Shown: positions 143 to 22,602 of the stretch, one piece after another
How positions within the stretch are numbered: the first letter of the stretch is position 1
How the letters are laid out: every line of letters begins with the position of its first letter
NCBI GenBank assembly: GCA_040768905.1
Contig: JAXGMA010000001.1
Span: 1,299,806 to 1,363,805 of the forward strand
Reading direction: 5' to 3'
DNA from: Christensenellales bacterium
Lineage (GTDB): Bacteria; Bacillota; Clostridia; Christensenellales; SZUA-584
Length of the DNA: 64,000 bases
Program-made: the position numbers and the translations under genes
Notes under the pieces: model-generated
Seen by the model: the letters and a program-made list of their open reading frames with translations, nothing else
What the model was told of the DNA's origin: nothing
Databases searched by the model: none

Positions 143-3100
143 ATGCCCAAAAGAGATGACATAAAAAAAATCATGGTGATCGGCTCAGGCCCGATCGTGA
201 TCGGCCAGGCTGCAGAATTTGACTATTCAGGCACGCAGGCGTGTAAAGCGCTGCGCGAAGAAAACTATGAGGTCGTACTCATCAATTCCAATCCCGCGAC
301 GATCATGACAGACGAAGAGATGGCCGACCGCGTGTATATAGAACCCATCACGCTTGAAACAATATCCATAATACTGCGCCAGGAGCGCCCGCAGGGCATC
401 ATCGCAACGCTCGGCGGCCAGACAGGGCTCAACATGGCGGTGGAGCTGGCAGAAAGCGGCATCCTCGATGAGCTCTCTATCGAGCTTCTTGGCACTTCGC
501 TTGAATCCATCAAGCTTGCCGAAGACCGCGAGCTGTTCAAAGCCACGATGGAACGCATCGGCGAAAAAATTGCACGCAGCTGTATTGCGGGCTCGATATC
601 AGAAGCCGAGGCTTTTGCCCGGGAAGCCGGTTTTCCCGTCATCGTGCGTCCTGCATACACGCTTGGCGGCACGGGCGGCGGCGTCGCACATGATACAGAG
701 CAGCTTAAGAACATCACCGCTCAGGGGCTTTCCTTTTCTATGATACACCAGGTTCTTCTGGAGCAAAGCGTGGCAGGCTATAAGGAGATCGAATATGAGG
801 TGATGCGCGACGCCAAGGACAACTGTATCGTGGTGTGCAACATGGAAAACTTCGATCCTGTCGGCATACACACGGGAGACAGCATCGTTGTCGCGCCTTC
901 GCAGACGCTGTCCGATAAAGAATACCAGATGCTCAGAAGCGCGTCGCTCAAGATCATACGCGCGCTTAAGATCAAAGGCGGCTGCAACATACAGTTTGCG
1001 CTTGACCCCGATACGTATGAGTATGTCGTTATTGAAGTCAACCCGCGCGTGTCGCGTTCGTCCGCACTCGCAAGCAAAGCCACGGGTTACCCCATCGCAC
1101 GCGCTGCCGCTAAGATCGCTGTCGGCTACGGGCTTGATGAGATCACCAATCCGATCACGGGCGAAACGTGCGCCTGCTTTGAACCCACGCTCGATTACGT
1201 GGTCACCAAGGTGCCGCGCTGGCCTTTTGACAAATTCGTGACCGCAACACGCACACTGGGCACGCAAATGAAAGCCACAGGCGAAGTGATGGCGATCGGC
1301 CGGAACTTTGAGGAATCGCTGTTAAAAGCCATCGACAGCCTTGATGTCAAGCTTGATTACCAGCTTGGCATGAAGAGCATCGCGTCGTGGAGCGATGAGG
1401 AGTTGGAAAACTCACTTAAGAACCCGGATGATGAGCGCATTTTCGTCGTCTCCGAGGCGCTTGACCGCGGTTACAGCGTCGACGATATTTTTGAAATCAC
1501 AAGAATTGACAAGTTCTTTATCAGCAAACTTAAAAACATCGTGAAGATCGCGGAAGAATTGAAACGCCATACCATCGATACGCTGCCTGTGGATTTGCTC
1601 AAAAAATGCAAAAGGTACGGCTTCGGCGACAGCTATACCGCGAACCTTTTGGGTTCTCAGGAAGCCGCCGTCAAAGCGCTGCGCATGGCGCTTGGGATCC
1701 GCCCCACCTATAAAATGGTCGACACCTGCGCTTGTGAATTCGAGGCCAAAACGCCGTATTACTACTCATGCTACGATACCGCAGACGAAACGCGGGACAG
1801 CGGGAGAAAAAAGGTCGTCGTGCTGGGCTCCGGCCCCATACGCATCGGCCAGGGCATTGAATTTGACTACTGTTCCGTACATGCTGTGATCGCGCTGCGG
1901 CAGCTTGGCCTTGAATCCATCATTATCAACTCGAATCCGGAAACGGTCTCGACCGATTTTGACACCTCCGACAAACTTTATTTTGAACCTTTAACGCGCG
2001 AATGCGTGCTCGACATCATCGAGCGCGAAAAACCCGAGGGCGTCATCGTGCAGTTCGGCGGGCAGACAGCCATCAATCTGGCCGCGCCGCTTGCCAAGGT
2101 GGGCGTGCATATTCTGGGCACGTCCGTTGACGGCATAGACCGCGCCGAAAACCGCGACCGTTTTTTGAAAACACTCGAAAAACTCAGCATTCCCGTGCCG
2201 CCCGGCGCAACCGCATTTTCGCTTGAAGACGCAAAGATCATCGCGCAGCGTATCGGTTTCCCGGTGCTGGTACGTCCTTCATATGTGCTCGGCGGACGCG
2301 CGATGGAAATCGTCTACAATGTGCAGGAACTCACCGAATACATGACTGCTGCAGCAAAAGTATCGCCTGAGCATCCGGTGCTTATCGACAAATACCTGAT
2401 TGGCAAAGAAGTGGAAACAGACGGTATCTGCGACGGCAACGAGGCGCTCATCGTCGGCGTGATGGAACACATCGAACGCGCAGGCGTACATTCGGGTGAC
2501 AGCTTTGCGGTTTATCCCGCGCAGACGCTGGAGGCACAGACGAAAAAGACGATCGTCGATTACGCCGTACGCATCGGCATTGAGCTTGGCATCAAAGGGC
2601 TCTACAACATTCAGTTTGTCGTGGAAGCGGACGGCAAGGTGTATGCTCTTGAGGTCAACCCGCGCGCAAGCCGCACCGTGCCTATACTCTCAAAAGTCAC
2701 GGGAGTCCCCATGGTCGCCGCTGCCACGCACATCATGATGGGCGGTACGCTGCACAGCCTTGCTATCGGCACCGGGCTGCACAAGGAAAGCCGCATGATC
2801 ACAGTCAAGGCGCCTGTGTTTTCGTTTTCAAAAATGACTACGGTGGATATCTTTTTAGGCCCCGAGATGAAATCAACGGGCGAAGTGATGGGCACGGACT
2901 ATACGTACTTAGCGGCGCTGAAAAAAGCCTTTGTCGCTTCGGGTGTGCATCCTCCGCGCGCCGATCTGCCGATCCTTTTCTCCATCACCGACAGAGACAA
3001 GGGTGAAGCAGCCGGCTTTGCGCGTAAACTGCTCAAAATGGGCTATGCGCTTGCCTGTACTGACCATACATATTCGTATTTTTCCTCGCAGGGCATCGCT

Positions 3101-3349
3101 TGCAGCCTTGTTTCCAAAGAAGATGTGATCTTGGCGCTCAAAGACAGGAAAATAGGCATGGTCATCAACACACCGACACGCGGCAAGCTGCAGGATCGCC
3201 TCGGATTCATGCTGCGCCGCACCGCCATGGAATTCAATGTGCCTTGTATCACATCCATGGATACGCTCAGCGCGCTGTTGTCTGTGATGAGCGCTGATGC
3301 CATCGAAGAGCATCACATACCTTTGAATATGTATTTAAAAGGAGAATGA
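143..3349 (+). CDS. carB: carbamoyl-phosphate synthase large subunit
   Basis: 1068-aa ORF with duplicated ATP-grasp halves ([16 protein letters not shown] at the N-terminus, [15 protein letters not shown] near aa 560) and an MGS-like C-terminal domain. GGAGG lies upstream of the ATG. Confidence 0.95.
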
Positions 3350-3351
3350 AG

Positions 3352-4326
3352 ATGGAAGACCTGATCTGCTATAAACCGCAAAAGCCCTTTTCGCAAAAAC
3401 ATCTGCTTACGCTTTTAGATTACACGCCTGACGAAATATTGACCGTTGTAAGCCTTGGTTTGAAGCTGAAAAAGCAGTATAAGGAAGGTCTGCGCCCTCC
3501 CCTTCTTGCGGGCAAAATACTTGCAATGATATTCGCAAAAAGCTCAACACGCACGCGCGTGTCTTTTGAGGCCGGCATATACCAGCTTGGCGGCACGGCG
3601 CAGTTTTTGAGCAGCGCCGATATACAGCTTGGCCGCGGAGAGCCCATCAGCGATACCGCAAAGGTGCTCTCTCGCATGGTCGACGGCATCATGATCCGCA
3701 CCTTTTCGCAAAGCGACTTAGAGCAGCTTGCGGCGCACGGCACCATCCCAGTGATCAACGGCTTGACAGATCTTGTGCATCCTTGCCAGATACTTGCCGA
3801 CTTAATGACGTATTACGAACACAAACGCAGTTTCAAGGGGAAGCTGGCTTTTATCGGCGACGGAAACAATGTGGCCAACTCACTGCTCATCGGCTGCAGC
3901 AAACTCGGGCTGGATATAGCCATCGCCTGCCCGAAAGGTTTTGAGCCAGACCTTGGGATGCTCGCCGCGGCACAGCAGGCGGCGGCTTTATGCGGCAGCA
4001 CCGTCACCGTCACGCATGACCCCGTTGAAGCAGCCAAAGACGCCGATGCCGTGTATACCGATGTGTGGGCCAGTATGGGGCAGGAAAGCGGCGCATCGGA
4101 AAAGTATGCGCACTTTGCCGGTTATCAGGTGAATGACGACCTCACGGCACACTGCAAAAACGATTATATTTTCCTGCACTGCCTGCCGGCACACCGCGGA
4201 GAAGAAGTCAGCGCTGACATCATTGACGGCCCTCACAGCGTGGTTTTTGACGAAGCTGAAAACCGCCTGCACGCTCAAAAGGCGGTTATGGCGCTGCTGT
4301 TGGGAGGCAAACAGTGTGGCCTATGA
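3352..4326 (+). CDS. argF: ornithine carbamoyltransferase
   Basis: Motifs STRTRVSFE, HPCQILAD and HCLPAHRGEEV. The ORF opens at 3346 (ATGA overlap with the carB stop), but the ATG at 3352 has better GGAG spacing. Confidence 0.9.
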   Translation: MEDLICYKPQKPFSQKHLLTLLDYTPDEILTVVSLGLKLKKQYKEGLRPPLLAGKILAMIFAKSSTRTRVSFEAGIYQLGGTAQFLSSADIQLGRGEPISDTAKVLSRMVDGIMIRTFSQSDLEQLAAHGTIPVINGLTDLVHPCQILADLMTYYEHKRSFKGKLAFIGDGNNVANSLLIGCSKLGLDIAIACPKGFEPDLGMLAAAQQAAALCGSTVTVTHDPVEAAKDADAVYTDVWASMGQESGASEKYAHFAGYQVNDDLTAHCKNDYIFLHCLPAHRGEEVSADIIDGPHSVVFDEAENRLHAQKAVMALLLGGKQCGL

Positions 4327-4844
4327 TGGAGAGCATCATTTTCAAAAAAGCCGAGGAAAAAGATACGGCTGTCATCAAAAGCGTGACGCGCAAGGCTTTT
4401 CTGGGCTACGCACAGGAAATACGCAAACAGGATCAGGTGGCCGCGCTGCACGAAACCGACGCGCATATATTGAGCGACATACGCAATAAGCATGTATATA
4501 TCTGCGAGGTGGACGGGCAGGTTGCGGGCGCAGTGCGTTTCGAAGTGCTCGATGAAGACATCGCTTACCTCTCGCGTCTGGCCGTTGATCCTGATTTCCA
4601 GTCTTTGGGTATCGGCGGCCTGCTGCTGGAAAAAGTGCGCCGGGAATGCGCCGCGCTTGGTGTGCGTGCGATCGCTTTGCATACCGCGAGCCGCATACGC
4701 GCTTCCGTGGCTTTTTACTTAAAAAACGGTTATTACATCCATTCTATCACCCGTGACAAGGCCTATATCCGTGCTTTTATGGTCAACGAACTGTGCGAGA
4801 TGGATGAGCTTTTTGACTATGAGTCGATAGTGGGTGACAGATAA
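4314..4844 (+). CDS. GNAT-family N-acetyltransferase
   Basis: 176 aa with an acetyl-CoA-binding-type segment LAVDPDFQSLGIGGLLLEKV. GTG start with GGGAGG 6 nt upstream. Overlaps the argF stop. Confidence 0.7.
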   Translation: MWPMMESIIFKKAEEKDTAVIKSVTRKAFLGYAQEIRKQDQVAALHETDAHILSDIRNKHVYICEVDGQVAGAVRFEVLDEDIAYLSRLAVDPDFQSLGIGGLLLEKVRRECAALGVRAIALHTASRIRASVAFYLKNGYYIHSITRDKAYIRAFMVNELCEMDELFDYESIVGDR

Positions 4845-4877
4845 TACATATTTATATGCCAAAATCAATTAATTTCC

Positions 4878-4907
4878 TTGACTTTGGCAACATTGCATGC
4901 ATATAAT
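4878..4907 (+). promoter_or_regulatory. sigma-A-type promoter of the aro operon (TTGACT-18 nt-TATAAT)
   Basis: TTGACT at 4878-4883 and TATAAT at 4902-4907, read directly. This is the only near-consensus pair in the 285-bp gap before aroF. Confidence 0.5.
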
Positions 4908-4938
4908 AACGCAAAGAAAGAATGACCAGGGAGCACGC

Positions 4939-5052
4939 ATGAACGATCTCTCGTCCGCAAAAAGATATTTTTGGTTTAGCAGCCGGAGCTATTATTATGG
5001 CTTCGGTTACTTTGCGTTGAATAGCGGACACCGGCGAGAGTGGGTTGCTTAA
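4939..5052 (+). CDS. aromatic-rich leader peptide of the aro operon (37 aa, MNDLSSAKRYFWFSSRSYYYGFGYFALNSGHRREWVA)
   Basis: GGGAG lies 5 nt before the ATG at 4939. Ten of 16 consecutive codons (4966-5013) encode Tyr, Phe or Trp. The stop at 5050-5052 lies 25 nt before a terminator hairpin. Too short for the supplied ORF track. Confidence 0.55.
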   Translation: MNDLSSAKRYFWFSSRSYYYGFGYFALNSGHRREWVA

Positions 5053-5076
5053 AAACTGGTAAATGTTGTATACCAA

Positions 5077-5109
5077 GGGGAGCTCATGCCGGGCTCCCCT
5101 TTTGATTTT
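5077..5109 (+). terminator. intrinsic terminator / attenuator in the aro leader
   Basis: GGGGAGCTC (5077-5085) pairs with GGGCTCCCC (5091-5099) around a 5-nt loop, followed by TTTTGATTTT. It lies about 20 nt before the aroF RBS. Confidence 0.75.
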
Positions 5110-5129
5110 CACAACCGGAGGAAAAAACA

Positions 5130-6146
5130 ATGATTGTTATCTTAAAACCCGGCGCGGAGCCGCAAAAGATCAATGAACTGATACAGACCCTTGAGCAGGA
5201 CTACGCCCTCGAGGTTCAGCGCATGGACGGCGTCAATTACTCCATTTTGGGGCTGATCGGCGACACCTCTTCCATCGATATAGAGCCTATCGCGGAGCTG
5301 TCCGCCGTGCGCAAGGTGATGCGCGTACAGGAACCCTATAAAAAGGTCAACCGCGCTTTCCATCCTGACGACACCGTGGTGCACGGCAAAGGCTTTGAGG
5401 TCGGCGGAAAGCAGCTGGCTCTGATGGCCGGCCCGTGCTCGGTCGAAAGCGAAGAGCAGATCGTCTCCATCGCAAAGCAGGTCAAGGCCGCAGGCGCCAA
5501 TTTCCTGCGCGGCGGCGCTTTCAAACCGCGTACCAGCCCGTACCGTTTTCAGGGGCTCGGCAAAGAGGGGCTTGATTTTTTGGAGACGGCGCGCGCGGAA
5601 ACAGGGCTGCCGATCGTCAGTGAAATAACGAGTGTCCAGTATGTTGATTTGTTCGTTGACAGGGTGGATGTGATACAGGTGGGCGCGCGCAACATGCAGA
5701 ACTTCGTACTGTTAAGCGAGCTTGGGCGGTGCAAAACGCCTGTTTTATTAAAACGCGGCCTCTCAGCAACGATCGAAGAATGGCTGATGTCTGCCGAATA
5801 CATCGCGGCAGGCGGCAACCCCAATGTTGTGCTCTGCGAACGCGGTATCCGCACATTTGAAACATCCACGCGCAACACGCTTGACTTAAGCGCAGTGCCT
5901 GTCATCAAGCGCCAGAGCCATCTGCCGATCATCGCTGACCCAAGCCACGCGACAGGGCATTGGTGGGCAGTCGGCCCTCTGTCTTTAGCGGCGATTTGTG
6001 CAGGAGCGGACGGCGTCATGATCGAAGTGCACGCGCAGCCCTCCGAGGCGCTTTCAGACGGCAAACAGTCTTTGCTGCCTGAAAAATTTTCAGATCTGGC
6101 GCAGCAGCTCAAAGGCGCGGCGGCGTTGATGGACAGGACGATATGA
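5130..6146 (+). CDS. aroF: 3-deoxy-7-phosphoheptulonate (DAHP) synthase, type I-beta with N-terminal regulatory domain
   Basis: 338 aa. The core (GPCSVESEEQ, KPRTSPYRFQGLG, ADPSHATG) resembles KDO8P-synthase-like DAHP synthases. About 65 aa of N-terminal ferredoxin-like extension. RBS GGAGG. Confidence 0.9.
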   Translation: MIVILKPGAEPQKINELIQTLEQDYALEVQRMDGVNYSILGLIGDTSSIDIEPIAELSAVRKVMRVQEPYKKVNRAFHPDDTVVHGKGFEVGGKQLALMAGPCSVESEEQIVSIAKQVKAAGANFLRGGAFKPRTSPYRFQGLGKEGLDFLETARAETGLPIVSEITSVQYVDLFVDRVDVIQVGARNMQNFVLLSELGRCKTPVLLKRGLSATIEEWLMSAEYIAAGGNPNVVLCERGIRTFETSTRNTLDLSAVPVIKRQSHLPIIADPSHATGHWWAVGPLSLAAICAGADGVMIEVHAQPSEALSDGKQSLLPEKFSDLAQQLKGAAALMDRTI

Positions 6147-6982
6147 TGGATGTGGATTTTACAGAAAAACGCATACTCTTAGCCGGCCTCGGCCTGATCG
6201 GCGGATCTGCAGCCAAAGCGATGCGCATGGCAGGCTACCGATATATAGACGGCCTTGATACCGATGAACAAACGCTTGAAACGGCGCTCAAAGAGGGCGT
6301 GATCAATGCGGCCTTCTCTGAAGACGCGATGCCGTACGACCTTGTGCTTTGCAGCCTCCCCCACCGGGCCGTTCCTCAGCTATATAAGCAGGTGCAGGGC
6401 GGCCTTGTGCAGGGCGGCGTGTTCGCGGAGCTTTCGGGTCTCAAGTCTGCCCTTATCCGCAAGCTAAGTGCCGTAATGTGCGACAACCACGTGCTGCTTT
6501 GTCTGCATCCCATGGCTGGCAGCGAGAAACAAGGCTATGCCCATTCACACGCAAAGATGTTTGATGGTGCGCCGCTGATACTCACACCGACCGAGAAGAC
6601 AAATGAAACGGCGCTTGAATGGTCGCACTTTATCGCTAAGGCTTTCGGCTGCTGCGGCATGCCCACGCTTTGCGCAAGGCGGCATGATGAAGCCATCGCC
6701 GCTGTGAGCCACCTTCCCCATATCGCGGCGCTCGCGCTGTGCGAGGCGGCATCAGGCAACGAACGTTTTGCGGGCGGCAGTTTTTCTGCGGTGACGCGTG
6801 TCGCGCAGCTCAATGCGCCGCTCTGGGCAGGACTCTTGGCAGACAATGCAGAATATGTTTTAAAAAGCCTTTCCTCGTTCCGTCAAAGCCTTATGGCGAT
6901 CGAGGCTGCGATAAGCACCGGTGACGCGACGGCGCTTGAAGCGTTGCTGCTGCGACTTTCAAAGGAGGATCACAAAAAATGA
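6143..6982 (+). CDS. tyrA: prephenate dehydrogenase
   Basis: 279 aa with Rossmann motif GLGLIGGSAAKA and SHLPH. ATGA overlap with the aroF stop. Confidence 0.85.
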   Translation: MMDVDFTEKRILLAGLGLIGGSAAKAMRMAGYRYIDGLDTDEQTLETALKEGVINAAFSEDAMPYDLVLCSLPHRAVPQLYKQVQGGLVQGGVFAELSGLKSALIRKLSAVMCDNHVLLCLHPMAGSEKQGYAHSHAKMFDGAPLILTPTEKTNETALEWSHFIAKAFGCCGMPTLCARRHDEAIAAVSHLPHIAALALCEAASGNERFAGGSFSAVTRVAQLNAPLWAGLLADNAEYVLKSLSSFRQSLMAIEAAISTGDATALEALLLRLSKEDHKK

Positions 6983-8046
6983 ACATGCTCACCATCCGTG
7001 CCGGCGCAAGCGAGTACCGGGTTTATATCGGCAGGGGCCTTATCGCCTCGCTTGTCGAGCGTGTGGCTGATCTGTTTCCACAAAGCCGTTTCGCCATGAT
7101 CACTGACACAAATGTAGAAGCCTTATACGGCGAAAAAATCATGCAGGATTTTGAAGACTGCGACGCCGAATGCGCTTTATTTTCTATCGAGCCGGGAGAA
7201 GCATCAAAGAGCGCTGAAACTTATGTGCAGCTGCTTTCCGCGCTTACTCAAAACGAGTTCAACCGCGCGGATGTGATCATCGCTCTTGGAGGCGGCGTTG
7301 TCGGAGACCTTGCGGGTTTTGTCGCCGCGACATACTTACGCGGTGTTCGTTATGTCCAGGTGCCGACAACACTGCTCGCGCAGATAGACAGTGCAGTGGG
7401 AGGCAAAACGGCTATCAATCTGCCGGAGGGTAAAAACCTCGCAGGCGCGTTTTACCATCCAAGCGCCGTTTATGCGGATACGGATGTGCTCGACACGCTG
7501 GATGCATCCGATTTTGCGGATGGTATGGCGGAGCTTATCAAATACGCACTGATCAAAGATGAGGCGATGTTTGCCGCACTTGAAGAAAGCGAGGCGGTCA
7601 GAACAAAGTCGGAAAACCTTGATAGCCTTATCATGGCATGCCTTGGCATCAAGCGCGATGTGGTGGCGGCGGACGAGCGCGACCGGGGCGATAGAATGCT
7701 TCTCAATTTCGGGCACACCATCGGACACGGCATAGAGCGGCTCTGCGCCGCTGACGGGCTGCCGATGACGCACGGGCGCGCTGTCGCCATCGGCATGGCG
7801 GCCATCACTGTGGCTTCTGAACGCGCCGGCCTGACACAGCCCGGCACCGCTTCGCGTATCGTTGCGGTGCTAAAAAAGGCAGGCCTGCCCTATGACATCA
7901 GCGGTTATGACAAAGACAGGATTCTTGAAGGCATTTTTATCGATAAAAAAAACGTTGCGGATACGCTGCACCTTGTGCTGGTCAGCGAACCGGGCAAATC
8001 CTTTTTATACCGGATAGACCGCAGCGATATGCGCAATTTTATCTGA
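6979..8046 (+). CDS. aroB: 3-dehydroquinate synthase
   Basis: 355 aa with GGGVVGDLAGFVAATYLRG, the VPTTLLAQIDSAVGGKT motif and metal-binding HxxGH (FGHTIGHGIE). Confidence 0.9.
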   Translation: MNMLTIRAGASEYRVYIGRGLIASLVERVADLFPQSRFAMITDTNVEALYGEKIMQDFEDCDAECALFSIEPGEASKSAETYVQLLSALTQNEFNRADVIIALGGGVVGDLAGFVAATYLRGVRYVQVPTTLLAQIDSAVGGKTAINLPEGKNLAGAFYHPSAVYADTDVLDTLDASDFADGMAELIKYALIKDEAMFAALEESEAVRTKSENLDSLIMACLGIKRDVVAADERDRGDRMLLNFGHTIGHGIERLCAADGLPMTHGRAVAIGMAAITVASERAGLTQPGTASRIVAVLKKAGLPYDISGYDKDRILEGIFIDKKNVADTLHLVLVSEPGKSFLYRIDRSDMRNFI

Positions 8047-8053
8047 GGTGTTT

Positions 8054-9319
8054 ATGGACGTTATTGTTTCACCGTCAGCGCTTGGCGGCATCGTGAACAT
8101 ACCGCCTTCCAAGAGCGCCGCACACCGCGCGATCATTGCGGCGGCAATAGCTGACGGCAAAAGCGTGATCAAAAACGTGGATCTTTCAAACGACATTCGC
8201 GCAAGCATGAATGCATGCATCAGTCTTGGCTGCAATTTTGAGACGGAGCAAAGCGGCAGCCGCTGTATCCTTCATATACAGGGCGGCTTTGAGCGCGGCA
8301 AAAAGGCGGATATCGACTGCTGCGAATCCGGCTCGACGCTGCGTTTTTTTATACCCATTGCATGTGCGCTCGGCGGCGAAAAAAAATTCACTGGCGAAGG
8401 ACGGCTCCCCCGGCGGCCTATTGACGCGTATCTTGATATCTTTGACGCGCAGGGCATCGCATACACCCGTCCGGCGGACTCATATCTGCCGCTCAAAGTC
8501 AGCGGAACGCTTGAAGGCGGCTTTTTTGATATTGACGGGCGCATAAGCTCGCAGTACATCACCGGTCTGCTTTTTGCGCTGCCTCTGATGAACAAGGATT
8601 CTATGATCAACGTGACCGGCGGTTTTGAATCACGCGGTTATGTTGACCTGACTGTGGACATGCTGCGTAAATTCGGCGTGCAGATAAGCGCAGATGAGAA
8701 CAGCTTTTTTGTAGGAGCCCCTCAGGCCTATGCGCCGCAAGACATCACCGTCGAAGGCGATTACTCACAGGCCGCGTTTTTTCTCGTCGGCGGAGCAGTT
8801 ACGGGGGAAGCGCGCTTAAGCGGCCTTTTAGAGCCTTCGCTGCAGCCTGACAGCGTGATCACCGCACTGCTTTTAAAAATGGGTGCCGATATACGGCGCG
8901 AAGGCAGTGTGCTTATAGCGAAAAAATCCAAACTGTACGGAACGGATATCGACGTATCACAATGCCCCGACCTTGTGCCGCCGCTCGCCGTTGCCGCTGC
9001 ATACGCACAAGGCAAAACGCGCATCACCGGCGCCGCAAGGCTGCGCATCAAAGAGAGCGACAGGCTCTCTGCTCTCGCGCAGAACCTTGGCCGGCTCGGT
9101 ATTAAGACGCAGGAAACACACGACGCGCTTGAGATCACAGGCGGGCCTGTTGCGGGCGGCGAAGTCTCATCCTTCGGCGACCACCGCATTGCCATGGCTT
9201 TTTCGATCGCGGCTTTAGGCGCACGCGGCAGCATTCGTATCAGCGGCGCGGAAAGCACAGAAAAATCATACCCTGCGTTTTATGATGACCTAAAAATATT
9301 GGGAGGAAAAATAGAATGA
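8054..9319 (+). CDS. aroA: 3-phosphoshikimate 1-carboxyvinyltransferase (EPSP synthase)
   Basis: About 421 aa with PPSKSAAHRA and the RIKESDR and GDHRIAMAF motifs. The ATG at 8054 follows GAGG; the ORF track start at 8048 is a GTG. Confidence 0.9.
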   Translation: MDVIVSPSALGGIVNIPPSKSAAHRAIIAAAIADGKSVIKNVDLSNDIRASMNACISLGCNFETEQSGSRCILHIQGGFERGKKADIDCCESGSTLRFFIPIACALGGEKKFTGEGRLPRRPIDAYLDIFDAQGIAYTRPADSYLPLKVSGTLEGGFFDIDGRISSQYITGLLFALPLMNKDSMINVTGGFESRGYVDLTVDMLRKFGVQISADENSFFVGAPQAYAPQDITVEGDYSQAAFFLVGGAVTGEARLSGLLEPSLQPDSVITALLLKMGADIRREGSVLIAKKSKLYGTDIDVSQCPDLVPPLAVAAAYAQGKTRITGAARLRIKESDRLSALAQNLGRLGIKTQETHDALEITGGPVAGGEVSSFGDHRIAMAFSIAALGARGSIRISGAESTEKSYPAFYDDLKILGGKIE

Positions 9320-10395
9320 GCAGCATTTGGGGCCGCCGTTTTACCGTGGACATTTTCGGGGAATCCCATGGCGTCAAAATTGGCGCTGTGATACACGGCA
9401 TACCGGCCGGTACGGTTTTTGACTTTCCCGGCATACGTGCCTTTCTTGACAGGCGCAGGCCGGGAGGCGAAGCATGGTCTACAAAGCGCAGCGAAGCCGA
9501 CGATTTTGAGATCGTGAGCGGATACTTCGGCGGCCACGCAACCGGCACTCCGCTCTGCGTGCTGTTTCACAACACCGCGCAGCGTTCTTCCGACTATGAC
9601 GGCGGCCAAAACAGGCCCGGACATGCCGACTTCACCGGACATGTGCGCTACAAAGGTTTTAACGACGCGCGCGGCGGCGGCCATTTTTCCGGGCGCCTCA
9701 CTGCGCCTCTTGTTTTCGCCGGTGCGGCTGCGCAGCAGATCTTGTCGCAAAATGATATTTATTTTGCCACGCACCTCCGCCGCATCGCGGATATCGAGGA
9801 CAAAGGTTTTGATAAAACGCATGTTTCAAAGCAGCTTGCGGACAAGCTATCCGCTTCACGTTTTCCGATTATTGACGAATCCGTGCGTGAGGCGATGGAA
9901 AACGAGGTAAAAACTGCCGCATCCGAGGGCGATTCTGTCGGCGGCATCGTCGAATGCGCTGTTTGCGGCATCCCGGCGGGAGTCGGCAGCCCGCTTTTTG
10001 ATACTGTTGAGAGCGCGCTGTCTTCATTGCTGTTCGCCATTCCGGCCGTCAAGGGCGTAAGCTTCGGTGCAGGTTTTTCTTTCGCACAGATGCGCGGCAG
10101 CCAGGCCAACGACGCTTATACGGTCAAAGGCGGGCGCATCGTCACCACATCCAACAACAACGGCGGGATAATTGGCGGCATCACAAACGGCATGCCTTTG
10201 GTGTTTGAAACGGTGATCAAGCCGACGCCGTCCATATCACGCCCGCAGCAAACGGTCAATCTGCAAACGCAAAAACAGGAAACGATAGAAATCAAGGGCA
10301 GGCATGACGCGTGCATCGTACCGCGCGCAGCTGCGGCCATAGAGGCGGCGGCATCCATCGGTGTGCTTGACCTGCTCATGGAAAGGGGCCTGTAA
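9316..10395 (+). CDS. aroC: chorismate synthase
   Basis: 359 aa with GESHG, RRRPGG, GGGHFSGR and KGRHDACIVPRA signatures. ATGA overlap with aroA. Confidence 0.95.
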   Translation: MSSIWGRRFTVDIFGESHGVKIGAVIHGIPAGTVFDFPGIRAFLDRRRPGGEAWSTKRSEADDFEIVSGYFGGHATGTPLCVLFHNTAQRSSDYDGGQNRPGHADFTGHVRYKGFNDARGGGHFSGRLTAPLVFAGAAAQQILSQNDIYFATHLRRIADIEDKGFDKTHVSKQLADKLSASRFPIIDESVREAMENEVKTAASEGDSVGGIVECAVCGIPAGVGSPLFDTVESALSSLLFAIPAVKGVSFGAGFSFAQMRGSQANDAYTVKGGRIVTTSNNNGGIIGGITNGMPLVFETVIKPTPSISRPQQTVNLQTQKQETIEIKGRHDACIVPRAAAAIEAAASIGVLDLLMERGL

Positions 10396-11514
10396 ATGGG
10401 ATATGAGAAAGAACTGCGTGTCCTGCGCGACAAGATCGACAGTATAGATGCCCGGCTTGTGCCGCTGTTTGAGGCACGCATGCAAGTCTCGGATGAAATC
10501 GCGGATGTCAAGCAGCGCTACGGCCGGCCTGTGTTTGATGCAGACCGGGAGAACAATGTGATGGAACGCGCTCTTTCGCATTTGACGGACTCAAGCAGCG
10601 ATGCAGAAGCGCGCCGCTTTTTTCGCGCGCTGATGGATCTGAGCAAGCAGCGCCAGGGCACACACTTTGAAAAACTTGACGACATCGCGGCCGATGAAAC
10701 GCCGGCTATCGGGCATCTTGGCCTCAAAGGCTCGTTTTCTCATATAGCCGCCTTGGAGGCTTTTGGCACCGACGCGCCGCTCAAAAGCTTTGACACATTC
10801 GAGGCAATGTTTGAAGCCCTGCGCATTGGTGAGATCGGGCGTGCCATACTGCCTGCCGAAAATACGGAAACGGGGAGCATCACAGCGGTCGTTGATCTGC
10901 TCGCACGATATGGCTACTTTATCATAGCAGAACGATTGCTCAAAGTGTCGCACAGCCTTCTTGGCCTCCCGGGTGCAGGCCTTGAGCAGATCAGGGAAGT
11001 ATATTCGCATCCCGAGCCCATTGTCCAATGCAGCCGCTTTTTGTTGAGCCATCCGGGTATCGTCTCGCATCCGGCGCTCAGCACTGCGCAGGCTGCCAGT
11101 CAGGTCGCGCAGATGGGCAATAAGACAGTCGGCTGCATCGCCTCATCGCTGGCAGCGCAAATATACGGGCTTGAGGTGCTTTCAGAGAATATCCAAAACA
11201 GCAGCGGCAACTCCACGCGTTTTGTCGTTGTTGCCAGAAAGCCGAAAATGACGGGCGCCTGCGACAAGACGAGCATCGTATTCAAGCTTGACCATCGGCC
11301 GGGTTCTCTTTTTGAATTGCTGCACCTGTTTTCGAATATCAACATCTTAAAGCTTGAGTCCCGGCCGCTTGCGGGACGCCCTTTTGAATACCTTTTCCAT
11401 CTTGATTTTGAAGGCAGCACAGATGATGAAAAAATCTCACAGGTGCTTGCGGAGGCCAAAAAACATGCCGCCGAGCTTGTGTGGCTTGGCTCGTATCCGC
11501 GCATGACGCTTTAA
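10396..11514 (+). CDS. pheA: bifunctional chorismate mutase / prephenate dehydratase
   Basis: 372 aa. N-terminal AroQ-type chorismate mutase helix (LRDKIDSIDARLVPLFEARM), then a prephenate dehydratase domain (TRF, ESRP motifs) and a C-terminal ACT domain. Confidence 0.9.
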   Translation: MGYEKELRVLRDKIDSIDARLVPLFEARMQVSDEIADVKQRYGRPVFDADRENNVMERALSHLTDSSSDAEARRFFRALMDLSKQRQGTHFEKLDDIAADETPAIGHLGLKGSFSHIAALEAFGTDAPLKSFDTFEAMFEALRIGEIGRAILPAENTETGSITAVVDLLARYGYFIIAERLLKVSHSLLGLPGAGLEQIREVYSHPEPIVQCSRFLLSHPGIVSHPALSTAQAASQVAQMGNKTVGCIASSLAAQIYGLEVLSENIQNSSGNSTRFVVVARKPKMTGACDKTSIVFKLDHRPGSLFELLHLFSNINILKLESRPLAGRPFEYLFHLDFEGSTDDEKISQVLAEAKKHAAELVWLGSYPRMTL

Positions 11515-11525
11515 GGAGAAGACAG

Positions 11526-12827
11526 ATGATAAAAGCAGGCCTTATCGGCGGTAAACTATCGCACAGCCTTTCACCTCAGGTGCATCAAAAATACTGGCAT
11601 CTTATCGGAAAACAGGGGCAATATGCACTCCTGGAAACGCCTGCGGATAAACTTTCTGAACTGCTTGACGCGCTTACTGAGAAAGGATATATAGGAGCCA
11701 ATGTCACGATTCCGCACAAAAAAGCTGTCATGCGGCATCTTGATGTGCTCTCCCCTGAAGCAGACGCCATCGGTGCGGTCAATACCATTCATTTTTCAGA
11801 CGGACGGCGCATTGGCTACAACACAGACTATTTTGGGCTTTTGTCTACGCTGCTGCGCTTTGGGATGCCTCTTTGCAACAAGCGCGTCGTCATTCTCGGG
11901 ACGGGCGGCGCCGCTGTCTGCGCATTTTGCCTTTCCAAAGATCAAGGCGCATCTGAGGTGCTGGTCATAAGCCGCCAGCCGCAAAAGGCCGACAAACGGC
12001 TCGGTGCTTTAGGTTATGACGCGCTCGAAGCACTTGACAGCATCGATGTGCTCATCAACACGACTCCGTCCGGGATGTTTCCTGACATAAAAAGCTGCCC
12101 CGTTTCCGTCGCGGTGATACAAAAATGCAAAGCCGTTGCGGATGTCATTTATAACCCTGAGCAAACACAGCTATTAAAAAAGGCCGCAGAGATGGGCAAG
12201 CCATGCGCAGGCGGCCTTTGGATGTTGTGTGCGCAGGCGCTCAAGGCACAGGAAATCTGGCTTGGGCGCGCTTATGACGCGTCTCTTTGCGCCAGCATAT
12301 TCAATGCGCTGCGGACAAAACCTGACCGCACCAACATCGTGCTGATCGGTATGCCGGGCAGCGGCAAAACCACGGTTGGACACATCCTTTCAAAAAGGCT
12401 CGGCCGCGAATATGCAGATACAGATATGCTTGTTGAAGCGTCCCACGGGCGCATACAGGACATCTTTGCCAAAAGCGGTGAAGCGGCTTTCCGCGCGCTT
12501 GAGCTTACTGCGGCGCGCGGCGCTGCAGCGAAGACACGCGCCGTTATTTCCACAGGCGGCGGCATCGTTCTGACACAAGCGTCAATGGAGGCGCTGCGGG
12601 AAACAGGCATCATCGTATACATCGACCGCCCGATGGAGCTTCTTCTTTGCGAAGTGGATACTGCCGACCGGCCGCTGCTGGCCGGAGGACGCCAGCGTCT
12701 CATTTCACTTTTTTCTCAAAGGCGCATGCTTTATCAAAAATATGCCGATATCACAGTACAAAACGCTGCTGACGCTGCGCAATGTGTAGATGATATCGTC
12801 AAAAAACTTAAGGAGTATAAATCATGA
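11526..12827 (+). CDS. aroE: fused shikimate dehydrogenase / shikimate kinase
   Basis: N-terminal half has SLSPQVH, NVTIPHK and GTGGAA (AroE). C-terminal ~170 aa has the Walker A GMPGSGKTT and STGGG (AroK). The ATG at 11526 has a GGAGAA RBS; the ORF-track start at 11481 overlaps pheA. Confidence 0.85.
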   Translation: MIKAGLIGGKLSHSLSPQVHQKYWHLIGKQGQYALLETPADKLSELLDALTEKGYIGANVTIPHKKAVMRHLDVLSPEADAIGAVNTIHFSDGRRIGYNTDYFGLLSTLLRFGMPLCNKRVVILGTGGAAVCAFCLSKDQGASEVLVISRQPQKADKRLGALGYDALEALDSIDVLINTTPSGMFPDIKSCPVSVAVIQKCKAVADVIYNPEQTQLLKKAAEMGKPCAGGLWMLCAQALKAQEIWLGRAYDASLCASIFNALRTKPDRTNIVLIGMPGSGKTTVGHILSKRLGREYADTDMLVEASHGRIQDIFAKSGEAAFRALELTAARGAAAKTRAVISTGGGIVLTQASMEALRETGIIVYIDRPMELLLCEVDTADRPLLAGGRQRLISLFSQRRMLYQKYADITVQNAADAAQCVDDIVKKLKEYKS

Positions 12828-13267
12828 AAATACTCGTCATCAACGGCCCGAATATCAATCTGCTTGGCGCGCGCGAACCGGATATATACGGCAAACTTGA
12901 TTATGCAGCGCTGCAGAGTGCGCTTTTGGAATTCGCACAAGCCAACGGCATCACGCTTGATATGTTCCAGTCAAATATTGAAGGCGTTTTGATCGATAAA
13001 ATCCAGCAGGCCTTTGGCAGTTATGACGGCATTGTCATCAACCCGGGCGCGTACACACATTACAGCATCGCGATACTCGATGCCTTAAAAGCATGCCCTG
13101 TACCCGCCATCGAAGTGCATTTGAGCCACATTGCGTCAAGGGAGGATTTTCGGCATAAATCCGTGACCGCGGGCGGCTGCATCGGCCAGATCAGCGGCCT
13201 TGGGTTTGATTCTTATCTGCTTGCCATCAAAGCGCATGTAAACCGCATCAGCGAACGCAATCAATAA
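12824..13267 (+). CDS. aroQ: type II 3-dehydroquinate dehydratase
   Basis: 147 aa with LVINGPNINLLGAREPDIYG, INPGAYTHYS and EVHLS(H/N)I motifs. Confidence 0.9.
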   Translation: MKILVINGPNINLLGAREPDIYGKLDYAALQSALLEFAQANGITLDMFQSNIEGVLIDKIQQAFGSYDGIVINPGAYTHYSIAILDALKACPVPAIEVHLSHIASREDFRHKSVTAGGCIGQISGLGFDSYLLAIKAHVNRISERNQ

Positions 13268-20779: not shown

Positions 20780-21739
20780 TTATTTCCCCAGCAGCTTCAA
20801 TGCCGCCGCCGTGATATCCTCTCCGCGCAATCCGAACCTTTCCTTTAAGTAGTCCACAGGCCCGACTTCACCGAACTCCTCCTTGATGCCGACACGCCCA
20901 AGTTTTGCAGGCGCACGTTCAGCGATCACTTCGGCGACCGCACTGCCAAGACCGCTTAGGTAATTATGGTTCTCACATGTCAGTATGATACCTGTCCGTT
21001 TGGCCTCTTGTTCCACAGTTTCTGCGTCAAAAGGCTTGAGGGTGAACATATCGATGACGCTTGCGGATATCCCTTTTTGTTTGAGCATATCGTGTGCGCG
21101 CAGCGCTTCGTAGACGCATATGCCGTTCGCGATGAGCGAAATGTCATTCCCGTCCCGGAGTTTGACGGCCTTGCCGATCTTAAACTTTGAGCCATCCTCA
21201 TACACCTTGATGGCATTTTTGCGCAGCAGCCGAAAATAGAATATCCCGGGCAGATCCTTTGACTGCCTGACCACATCCGCCAGCATCACCGAATCCGTAG
21301 GTTCGATCACAGTTGCACCCGGCAACATACGCATAATGCCCAGGTCTTCAAAGCTCATGTGCGTGCCGCCGTTGAGTGCTGCCGTCACGCCCGGGTCGCT
21401 TCCGATGATTTTGACGTTTGTCTTGGCATAGGCGCACGAAAGCCATATCTGGTCAAGTGCCCTGCGCGTCGAGAACGGCGCGAACGTATGCATAAAGGGT
21501 ATGAATCCCTCAACGGCAAGGCCTGCCGCAACGCCCGCCATATTGGCTTCCTGCACGCCGCAGTTGACCGTCCTCTCAGGAAATTTTACCGCAAAAGGTT
21601 TTGTACCCATGGCCGCCATCAGATCAGCGTCCATAAGGACGACCTTATCGTCCTTTTCGGCCAGCTCTATCATCGTGCTGCAGAACACTTTTCTCATTTC
21701 AAGTTCTTCTAATTTGTTTTCCTTTACAGGTATAATCAT
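20780..21739 (-). CDS. transketolase, C-terminal (pyrimidine-binding) subunit
   Basis: 319 aa with FPERTVNCGVQEANMAGVAAGLA and a GGTHMSFEDLGIMR-like motif. The start is ambiguous (21739 or 21697). Confidence 0.85.
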   Translation of the reverse strand: MIIPVKENKLEELEMRKVFCSTMIELAEKDDKVVLMDADLMAAMGTKPFAVKFPERTVNCGVQEANMAGVAAGLAVEGFIPFMHTFAPFSTRRALDQIWLSCAYAKTNVKIIGSDPGVTAALNGGTHMSFEDLGIMRMLPGATVIEPTDSVMLADVVRQSKDLPGIFYFRLLRKNAIKVYEDGSKFKIGKAVKLRDGNDISLIANGICVYEALRAHDMLKQKGISASVIDMFTLKPFDAETVEQEAKRTGIILTCENHNYLSGLGSAVAEVIAERAPAKLGRVGIKEEFGEVGPVDYLKERFGLRGEDITAAALKLLGK

Positions 21740-21753
21740 ATTCTATTTACACC

Positions 21754-22602
21754 TCATTCCTTCCAGGCTTTTTTGCTTGCTTCAAGTTCTTGCACCGCTT
21801 TTTCCATGTCTTCCTTGGACACGGGCGCATTGTGGTTGCTCGGGCTTCCTGCCCAGAAACTTACGCCATAGCCTTTGATGGTATTCATCACGATCATGGA
21901 CGGTTTGTCATTCTGCGCCTGCGCATTCTTGATTGCGGTGTAAATCTGGCCGATATCGTTGCCGTCTATCAGCTGTGTGTACCACCCGAACTCGGAAAAC
22001 TTTTTGTCAAGTTCGCCAAGATCACAGATCTCCTCTGTGGTTCCGTCGAGGCATTGCCTGTTGTAATCCGCGAAAACGATCAGATTGGACAGGTTCCTAT
22101 GGCCCGCAAACAGCGCCGCTTCCCAGACCTGGCCTTCCTGGCTCTCTCCGTCTCCTATGACCGCGTACACATAGTTTTTCAGGCCTTTCATCCGGCATGC
22201 CAGCGCAATGCCGCACGCAGCCGATATTCCCTGCCCGAGTGAGCCCGTCGTCATGTCGATGCCCGGTGTTCTGTTCCTGTCGCAGTGGCTTGGCAGGCTT
22301 GTACCCGGCCGGTTGAGCGTATCGAGGACTGCCATCGGGAAGTAGCCTTTCATGGCAAGCGCCGCATAAAGCGCCGGCCCAGCATGGCCTTTTGACAGCA
22401 CAAATCTGTCACGTTCTTCCCAACTGGGGTCATCTGGCCTTATGTTCATGACCTCCCAGTACAGCACCGCCAGCAGATCTGGTATCGACAGTGCCCCGCC
22501 GATATGCCCAACGCCGAGGCTGCCAATTTCTTTGACCGTCTCAATGCGTATGTCTGCGGCTTTTGTTTTTAATTCCATCTGCCTTGTTTTTGCTAATATC
22601 AT
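21754..22602 (-). CDS. transketolase, N-terminal (TPP-binding) subunit
   Basis: 282 aa with GHIGGALS, SKGHAGPALY and the GDGESQEG TPP-binding motif. ATGA overlap with the upstream gene, AGGAGG RBS. Confidence 0.9.
   Translation of the reverse strand: MILAKTRQMELKTKAADIRIETVKEIGSLGVGHIGGALSIPDLLAVLYWEVMNIRPDDPSWEERDRFVLSKGHAGPALYAALAMKGYFPMAVLDTLNRPGTSLPSHCDRNRTPGIDMTTGSLGQGISAACGIALACRMKGLKNYVYAVIGDGESQEGQVWEAALFAGHRNLSNLIVFADYNRQCLDGTTEEICDLGELDKKFSEFGWYTQLIDGNDIGQIYTAIKNAQAQNDKPSMIVMNTIKGYGVSFWAGSPSNHNAPVSKEDMEKAVQELEASKKAWKE

Follow-up and report, generated by a model that had tools for sequence, protein, structure and literature searches.

How is transcription controlled at an operon that combines DAHP synthase, the chorismate steps and the genes tyrA and pheA? 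This question is raised by positions 4878 to 5129 of a 64,000-nucleotide (nt) stretch of contig JAXGMA010000001.1 (assembly GCA_040768905.1, Christensenellales bacterium), here called the window, which contain the leader of the operon aroF-tyrA-aroB-aroA-aroC-pheA-(aroE-aroK fusion)-aroQ (5117-13267, plus strand). T-box leaders and TRAP are the usual controls of aromatic amino-acid genes in Firmicutes. An earlier inspection of the letters and their open reading frames (ORFs), referred to as the sequence-only reading, had noted the lack of a T-box sequence and had proposed control by ribosome-mediated attenuation. Comparative evidence on the small leader ORF, the terminator and the position of the antiterminator upholds that proposal: with a probability of roughly 0.85, the element is a ribosome-mediated leader-peptide transcription attenuator, which makes expression of the aroF-...-aroQ operon depend on how much charged tRNA-Tyr and tRNA-Phe is available.

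The signals listed by the sequence-only reading, namely promoter, leader Shine-Dalgarno (SD) sequence, start and stop codons and the ribosome binding site of aroF, were all recovered at the positions given there. On the plus strand, a consensus scan located a sigma-70-type promoter with 11 of 12 matches (TTGACT 4878-4883, 18-nt spacer, TATAAT 4902-4907), which is a putatively functional promoter with a probable transcription start at about 4914. The SD sequence GGGAG (4929-4933) is found 5 nt 5' of the ATG at 4939 and is followed by an ORF of 37 codons plus TAA (4939-5052, stop codon 5050-5052), the translation of which is MNDLSSAKRYFWFSSRSYYYGFGYFALNSGHRREWVA. Five Tyr, four Phe and one Trp codon account for 10 of the 16 codons between 4966 and 5013 (residues Y F W F S S R S Y Y Y G F G Y F), as had been counted before and was confirmed by translation. 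This peptide has no annotation in the public protein collection. The GC-rich hairpin with T-run described downstream of the ORF is likewise present, and the terminator scan extended it to an intrinsic terminator of 11 pairs, seven of them G-C, at 5075-5101 (5' arm 5075-5085, loop of 5 nt 5086-5090, 3' arm 5091-5101; -19.7 kcal/mol), which is followed by TTTTGATTTT. The U-tract TTGATTTT occupies 5102-5109, and the two final pairs of the stem, A5075-U5101 and A5076-U5100, already use two T from the start of the run. The aroF ATG at 5130 (aroF 5130-6146, SD sequence GGAGG at 5117-5121) follows the terminator stem after only 28 nt, and no promoter-like site was found between them; this gap leaves no space for a second promoter, so that aroF depends on read-through.

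The logic of leader-peptide attenuation is established for E. coli pheL-pheA, pheM-pheST and trpL, and the present leader resembles these systems in having regulatory codons, a terminator and a competing antiterminator, the 5' strand of which would be masked by a ribosome at the stop codon. In the proposed mechanism, transcription would begin at the promoter 4878-4907, and a ribosome would load at the SD sequence 4929-4933 and the ATG at 4939. With plentiful Tyr and Phe, the ribosome would pass the aromatic run 4966-5013 and reach the stop codon 5050-5052, where its footprint would lie over the antiterminator 5' strand (segment 2, 5031-5048); the terminator 5075-5101 with its U-tract would then form and transcription would end before aroF. 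With scarce Tyr or Phe, the ribosome would stall within the aromatic run, 18 nt or more before 5031, and would leave 5031-5048 free to pair with 5078-5092 (segment 3) as soon as this is transcribed, by which the terminator 5' arm would be sequestered and RNA polymerase could continue into aroF. Sensing of Tyr or Phe would thereby take the form of an OR gate. The content of the operon, for which the Pfam assignments agree with the earlier list of DAHP synthase, chorismate steps, tyrA and pheA, is consistent with sensing of Tyr and Phe, both of which it makes.

For the comparative analysis, AroF-anchored loci were taken from 80 species-representative genomes and 80 metagenome contigs. The nearest relatives by AroF (78-85% identity) were a Christensenellaceae metagenome-assembled genome (MAG; L001), two Bacillota genomes (L002 and L003) and two metagenome contigs (L081 and L082), the latter two being all that was added by a metagenome scan for close relatives. 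Together with the window they make up a clade of six members, inside which covariation statistics are thin. The motif TTGAC...CATATAAT of the putative promoter occurs at an identical aligned position in L001 and L002 and is also found upstream in L082 and L081. In L003, about 45 extra nt with a GC-rich hairpin (GGGCGCUCGCGCC; L003:2230-2275) are located between a promoter-like TATAAT and the leader SD sequence, for which the other clade members have no counterpart.

Conservation of the small ORF, which the sequence-only reading had put forward as a check, was assessed by a scan of the 450 nt upstream of aroF in 81 sequences for small ORFs with at least 8 F/Y/W per 16 residues. Such ORFs were found in 38 of the 81 forward sequences, in 3 of the 81 reverse complements and in none of 405 shuffles. 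The carriers include C. difficile, C. butyricum, Acetobacterium, Alkalibacter and Pelosinus as well as Megasphaera, Phascolarctobacterium, Blautia, Roseburia and Monoglobus. Within the 64-kb window, no small ORF other than the leader ORF has 10 or more aromatic residues in 16, whichever strand is read.

Inside the clade, SD sequence and ATG are conserved, and all six members place a GGAG-type SD sequence 5-9 nt upstream of the ATG. Of the 63 non-redundant leaders of the wider set, 61 have an SD motif by a lenient definition. The variation between Y-Y-Y and Y-Y among clade members is a 3-nt gap, and a 7-nt insertion in L002 is offset by a 1-nt deletion, so that the length of the ORF is kept. 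The stop codon falls into identical alignment columns in 6 of 6 members, where the C-terminal peptide is not conserved although the nucleotides are; the N-terminal sequence of the peptide is likewise not conserved among relatives. The aromatic cores of 42 leaders from outside the clade were additionally aligned with MAFFT without supplying the reading frame. In this alignment, the length of an internal gap run is divisible by three in 71 of 72 cases, and a single codon phase is kept in each column. The aromatic columns show U at the first position, U or A at the second (an exchange of Phe and Tyr) and U or C at the third (synonymous). Together with the fixed stop, these patterns indicate that the leader ORF is under coding constraint, with selection apparently acting on an aromatic codon here and a stop codon there and not on one protein. 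A recurrent peptide motif can nevertheless be written, as ...W-G-[FY]-[FY]-F-S-A-G-Y-F... in the wider family and as R-S-Y-Y-Y-G-F-G-Y-F in the clade of the window.

The most conserved RNA element of the leader is a hairpin inside the aromatic codon run, named P1, which the sequence-only reading had overlooked. In minimum free energy (MFE) folds it comprises 12 bp at 4981-5008 (AGCCGGAGCUAU / UAUU / AUGGCUUCGGUU; -16.2 kcal/mol), carries the three Tyr codons at its apex with the loop UAUU and is followed by UUACUUUGCGUU; imperfect pairing extends it to 4966-5023. P1 is enclosed by an outer helix P0 (4953-5029), in which GUCCGC 4953-4958 pairs with GCGGAC 5024-5029 and which RNAalifold retains in 4-5 of the 6 clade members. 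P0 and P1 as a whole amount to -30.2 kcal/mol. The leader folds better than dinucleotide shuffles (z -3.6). When the aromatic segment was compared with codon-order shuffles, z was -4.0 for the window and -2.0 on average over the 63 leaders, 31 of which reached p<=0.05. In the alignment of the 42 leaders, the homologous helix of 8 bp is paired to 84%, compared with 75.5% in shuffles and at most 51% when slid, and 24 of its cells are changed on both sides, whereas 6.0 are expected and none of 500 shuffles reaches 24. P1 and its U-rich tail most likely serve as a pause or synchronising hairpin, which would be melted by the translating ribosome.

The covariation of P1 bears directly on the rival explanation that survives best, though it remains very unlikely: TnaC-like arrest by the nascent peptide, which would sense free aromatic amino acids or another ligand instead of hungry codons. 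Conserved non-aromatic residues in the recurrent peptide motif would fit such an arrest peptide. However, it is exactly the codons of the conserved residues Gly, Ser, Ala, Arg and Trp that make up the stem of P1, in which they show base-pair covariation; this explains the apparent conservation of the non-aromatic residues. Phe and Tyr are, moreover, freely interchangeable at the aromatic positions. A biosynthetic operon is also expected to be induced by starvation and not by excess, and the experimentally studied analogue aroR (see below) reacts to Phe limitation.

A covariance model, R1, was built from the 42 aroF leaders outside the clade of the window, which come from Clostridia and Negativicutes and include C. 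difficile, C. butyricum, Acetobacterium, Pelosinus, Megasphaera, Blautia and Roseburia. Applied to the 64-kb window, R1 gave a single significant match, at 4963-5022, with 51.9 bits and an E-value of 1.6e-9, full length and ungapped. Among the collected loci it matched 36 of the 80 from genomes and 25 of the 80 from metagenomes, always on the aroF strand. A weak second match in the window (21733-21780, 13.4 bits, E 2.7) is most likely due to chance.

Two of the family loci show further arrangements. In a Phascolarctobacterium MAG (L013), the leader (1131-1190) and its terminator are present only before the first of two tandem aroF paralogues (ORFs 1377-2390 and 2501-3514), each of which encodes DAHP_synth_1 and a ferredoxin-like domain. 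A Megasphaera MAG (L064) has a second aromatic leader copy at 267-329, 2 kb upstream of the aroF copy, which encodes MKEMSQVLHEIAYVFTYFSWSSFFAGAGYFAY... and is followed by its own CUCAU-containing terminator and by ORF 473-883, the gene of a 136-aa ACT-domain protein; the family therefore controls more than aroF.

Catalogued RNA families were searched for with cmscan against Rfam 15. No match at gathering score was obtained in the whole 64-kb window, be it to tRNA, rRNA or riboswitch families, and at E-values up to 10 the region 4780-5200 gave just unrelated chance matches. A T-box (RF00230) and other catalogued leaders, such as Phe_leader, and riboswitches are hence excluded, in line with the lack of a T-box noticed before. 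T-boxes were also considered as substitutes at 18 aroF loci without the aromatic ORF (L007, L012, L022, L028, L039, L044, L086, L091 and others), a batch that included L013, the leader of which was later located further upstream. This candidate was rejected: no T-box or other Rfam family was found upstream of aroF in these 18 loci, and the sole T-box in them, L048:4759-5003, lies downstream of aroF.

An untranslated RNA element, for instance a riboswitch, a T-box-like RNA or a TRAP- or PyrR-like protein site, could drive the terminator directly, with the ORF being incidental, and some of the observations would suit it: P1 is conserved and covaries, some synonymous positions are conserved in the wider family (e.g. 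AGC GCU GGC), and in the clade the nucleotides encoding the C-terminus are kept while the peptide is not. Against it stand the lack of a matching Rfam family, gap lengths divisible by three and the aromatic columns with their U/[UA]/[UC] pattern. The SD sequence and ATG are conserved and the stop codon is fixed relative to the antiterminator, and the F/Y/W enrichment is seen neither on the reverse complement nor in shuffles. This explanation is rated a little below peptide arrest and is likewise far from the attenuator.

Competition between terminator and antiterminator is a further part of the attenuator reading. The terminator is kept in 6 of 6 clade members, and an intrinsic terminator lies between ORF stop and aroF in all 63 non-redundant leaders. 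In the window, the fold of the truncated transcript and a duplex search assign the 5' strand of the predicted antiterminator to 5031-5048, i.e. to the last six sense codons, ending 2 nt before the stop codon, while the truncated-transcript fold places its 3' strand at 5078-5092, within the terminator hairpin. For a transcript truncated at 5092, the MFE fold pairs these two strands both without a ribosome and with a stall from the Trp12 codon (A site 4972) onward; the pairing is lost in the same truncated fold when the footprint of a ribosome at the stop codon (5035-5061) is masked, in agreement with the earlier expectation that this ribosome masks segment 2 and permits the terminator. In co-transcriptional MFE snapshots, the antiterminator is present at 3' ends 5092-5096 and the terminator from 5100. 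The complementarity of 5031-5040 to 5083-5092, on which the sequence-only reading had based its 2:3 pairing, is real and belongs to the MFE fold of the transcript with its 3' end at 5092. An antiterminator is thus present as claimed, although it is better described as 5031-5048 paired with 5078-5092, and the GAG:CUC part of the original pairing is specific to the window.

Whole-leader MFE folding of the 63 leaders was tried for the location of antiterminators and was discarded; its results were unstable with the truncation point and the choice of start, and the partner found for the window differed. Therefore, a direct duplex search of the terminator 5' arm (plus loop) against the upstream RNA was used instead. 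The best duplex partner of the terminator 5' arm extends from -18 to +1 relative to the stop in the window, L001, L081 and L082 and from -10 to -1 in L002, and among the 63 leaders, 48 have the midpoint of the best duplex at a distance of 0-45 nt upstream of the stop codon. The conserved register consists of CCGGY:RCCGG (5031-5035:5088-5092) and RUGGGYU:AGCUCAY (5040-5046:5081-5087), in which compensatory changes occurred in the clade: C5035-G5088 is U-A in L081, and U5041-A5086 is C-G in L002. CUCAU is the commonest 5-mer of the terminator 5' arms (19 of 63), and all 19 of these leaders have RUGAG or RUGGG at most 48 nt before the stop. The support for the predicted antiterminator of the window is positional and comparative.

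The two remaining rivals can be judged from the same data. A stand-alone small protein gene with its own terminator, e.g. for a hydrophobic micropeptide, with aroF expressed separately, would account for the good promoter, SD sequence and terminator, but the 28 nt without promoter-like site before the aroF ATG make aroF dependent on read-through, the element precedes aroF, or once the ACT-domain protein gene, in the loci examined, neither terminus of the peptide is conserved, and the peptide is absent from the public protein collection; we regard this explanation as even less credible than an untranslated element. Chance, that is an AT-rich spacer with a UUU/UAU-rich ORF beside the ordinary terminator of the upstream gene, is effectively refuted, since, however frequent UUU and UAU are in AT-rich spacers, none of the 405 shuffles reaches 8/16 aromatic residues, no second such ORF exists in 64 kb, a covariance model built without the window's clade matches at E 1.6e-9, the family alignment keeps the frame and the aromatic-column pattern, and the GNAT gene on the upstream side already ends at 4844, ahead of the promoter.

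The classical scheme proposed by the sequence-only reading also comprised a 1:2 pairing, with segment 1 (CUCUCGUCCG, 4948-4957) as partner of segment 2. Segment 1 can indeed pair with 5032-5040 (9 bp with a bulged U), and an extended duplex of 4930-4958 with 5032-5051 reaches -20.0 kcal/mol. However, this pairing lies outside the MFE fold and has not been kept in L082 and L001, the closest relatives; when forced, it costs 2.3 kcal/mol relative to the MFE for a 3' end at 5050 and 7.1 kcal/mol relative to the antiterminator state for one at 5092. The complementarity itself was thus correctly seen, while segment 1 is at present a possible, not an established, anti-antiterminator. For the six-member clade, RNAalifold suggested a different long-range helix, in which the SD region pairs with the antiterminator strand (5040-5050); it was not adopted, being G-U rich and mismatched and having no family-wide support. 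The leader SD region 4928-4938 (AGGGAGCACGC) resembles the terminator 5' arm at 5077-5087 (GGGGAGCUCAU), which is why this helix of SD region and antiterminator strand is predicted in the clade.

A corresponding family has already been predicted for Clostridia and Negativicutes. Stav et al. (2019, BMC Microbiol 19:66, PMC6429828; Fig. 6b, Table S1b and supplementary text) report two "aromatic amino acid attenuators", both of which were found from Clostridium novyi. One of them, uORF-13, is given there with 336 examples from Clostridiales, Thermoanaerobacterales, Acidaminococcales, Selenomonadales, Veillonellales, Bacillales and metagenomes, with aroF as neighbour in about half of the examples and tyrA as the next commonest, and with an architecture of a short ORF with ribosome-binding site upstream of a terminator stem and an F-Y-F consensus in the P1 loop (PMC6429828). 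The novelty implied by the sequence-only reading, which had regarded Gram-positive aromatic operons as controlled by T-boxes or TRAP, is consequently lost. The R1 family shares architecture, gene context and taxonomic range with uORF-13, and its C. difficile leader (L014), from a species named in PMC6429828, encodes G-F-Y-F-S with F-Y-F in the P1 loop. The window itself agrees in having SD sequence (4929-4933), ORF (4939-5052) and terminator (5075-5101) with U-tract, aromatic codons in the P1 loop (UAU UAU UAU at the apex of 4981-5008), a position before aroF (5130), then tyrA and the rest of the pathway, and an origin in Firmicutes, its closest AroF loci being Christensenellaceae and Bacillota metagenome-assembled genomes. 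For these reasons the window element is taken as a divergent member of uORF-13, an identification drawn from matching descriptions and not from comparison of alignments.

The divergence consists in Y-Y-Y or Y-Y instead of F-Y-F in the P1 loop of the window's clade and in P1 arms for which the codons of S-R-S and G-F-G take the place of those of W-G and S-A-G. A branch with a Y-Y-Y loop is thus added to a family so far only predicted. Moreover, the antiterminator, which is not described in the text of Stav et al. and was worked out here, its fixed position at the 3' end of the ORF, the frame-independent coding signature and the covariation of P1 extend the description of uORF-13.

The analogue studied experimentally is aroR of Corynebacterium glutamicum (Neshat et al. 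2014, as reported in PMC11802643 and in the supplement of PMC6429828), an F-Y-F leader before aroF, at which ribosome stalling raises transcription under Phe limitation and which is reported to be insensitive to Tyr supply (PMC11802643). Both leaders encode peptides with aromatic codons upstream of a DAHP synthase operon, but aroR belongs to Actinobacteria, its peptide and RNA structure are distinct from those of uORF-12 and uORF-13 according to Stav et al. (PMC6429828), and its insensitivity to Tyr contrasts with a window leader that has more Tyr than Phe codons. Compared by description only, uORFC-13-1 (Brewer et al. 2021, PMC8632094) is similar in that its uORF contains Phe codons and is accompanied by an adjacent terminator and another base-paired substructure. 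It is described with 24 representatives, exclusively upstream of aroF, and reported solely from Acholeplasma and environmental sequences. To the E. coli attenuators, the window leader has no sequence or Rfam relationship; it furthermore differs from them in a mixture of Tyr and Phe codons in place of those for one amino acid, in a most conserved hairpin that carries the regulatory codons in its loop, and in belonging to a family in which no conserved 1:2 anti-antiterminator was found. With T-box and TRAP systems it shares the regulatory position and the output, conditional termination before biosynthetic genes, but it has no T-box match, and the proposed sensor is the translating ribosome and not a tRNA-binding RNA or an RNA-binding protein.

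Several points weigh against the leader-peptide attenuator. The full-length leader at equilibrium folds into the terminator in every modelled ribosome state, and the terminator conformation is favoured over the antiterminator conformation by about 8 kcal/mol; switching can therefore not be demonstrated by thermodynamics alone, and regulation rests on an assumed kinetic window, as in classical attenuators. If the ribosome is stalled at the earliest position modelled (A site at Tyr10, 4966), the antiterminator is absent from the MFE of the truncated transcript, and taken individually the antiterminator duplex of the window is no better than shuffled controls (z -0.5). A conserved anti-antiterminator was not found in the family, in which the partners scatter over SD, pre-aromatic and aromatic regions (mean z -0.75); since segment 1 is in addition not conserved, this part is unproven. 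Without a ribosome, the model predicts the antiterminator and hence read-through, unlike the E. coli trp paradigm. The uORF-13 family is itself a bioinformatic prediction and is not contained in Rfam 15. Finally, the RNA polymerase of B. subtilis is said to outrun the lead ribosome (PMC9226507), which raises the question how coupling is achieved in Firmicutes.

It is conceivable that the family is a three-segment attenuator without obligatory anti-antiterminator, with read-through as the default in the absence of a ribosome and with P1 and its U-rich tail as a dedicated device for pausing the polymerase or synchronising the ribosome. This is a speculative extension, which we consider doubtful on the present data. 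If it were true, the wide distribution of the family in Clostridia and Negativicutes would mean that transcription and translation are still kinetically coupled, in a functional way, at leaders of these lineages, in contrast to the picture of 'runaway transcription' derived from B. subtilis, and P1-dependent pausing would make amino-acid-sensing leader peptides workable in Firmicutes. Such peptides are described as rarely reported in Firmicutes (Millman et al.), and for B. subtilis ribosome-mediated attenuation has been reported for antibiotic-resistance genes. A leader-peptide attenuator would explain how the whole Tyr/Phe pathway can be controlled from a single promoter in an uncultured Christensenellales-like Clostridium, and it would mean that amino-acid-sensing leader peptides are not restricted to Proteobacteria and Actinobacteria. 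It would also explain the premature termination in the C. difficile aroF 5' untranslated region, for which Fuchs et al. (2021) indicate no known riboregulator, and the family would offer a convenient system for tests of transcription-translation coupling in anaerobic Firmicutes.

The genes around the leader were assigned from the ORF list and Pfam. The product of aroF is a DAHP synthase with an N-terminal ferredoxin-like domain, and that of pheA combines chorismate mutase and prephenate dehydratase. The aroE-aroK fusion is one ORF of 448 aa (11481-12827) with a shikimate dehydrogenase N-terminal domain and a shikimate kinase domain, and for most genes of the operon, the stop codon of one and the start codon of the next lie within an overlap of a few bases. 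Upstream of the leader lie carB for the large chain of carbamoyl-phosphate synthase (143-3349), a gene for an ornithine/aspartate carbamoyltransferase (3346-4326) and a GNAT acetyltransferase gene (4314-4844); these genes overlap where they meet, and the last of them stops 34 nt upstream of the leader promoter. On the minus strand, an antisense ORF of 92 aa with a TTG start (4852-5130) spans the whole leader; it is a mechanical ORF, and nothing supports its status as a gene.

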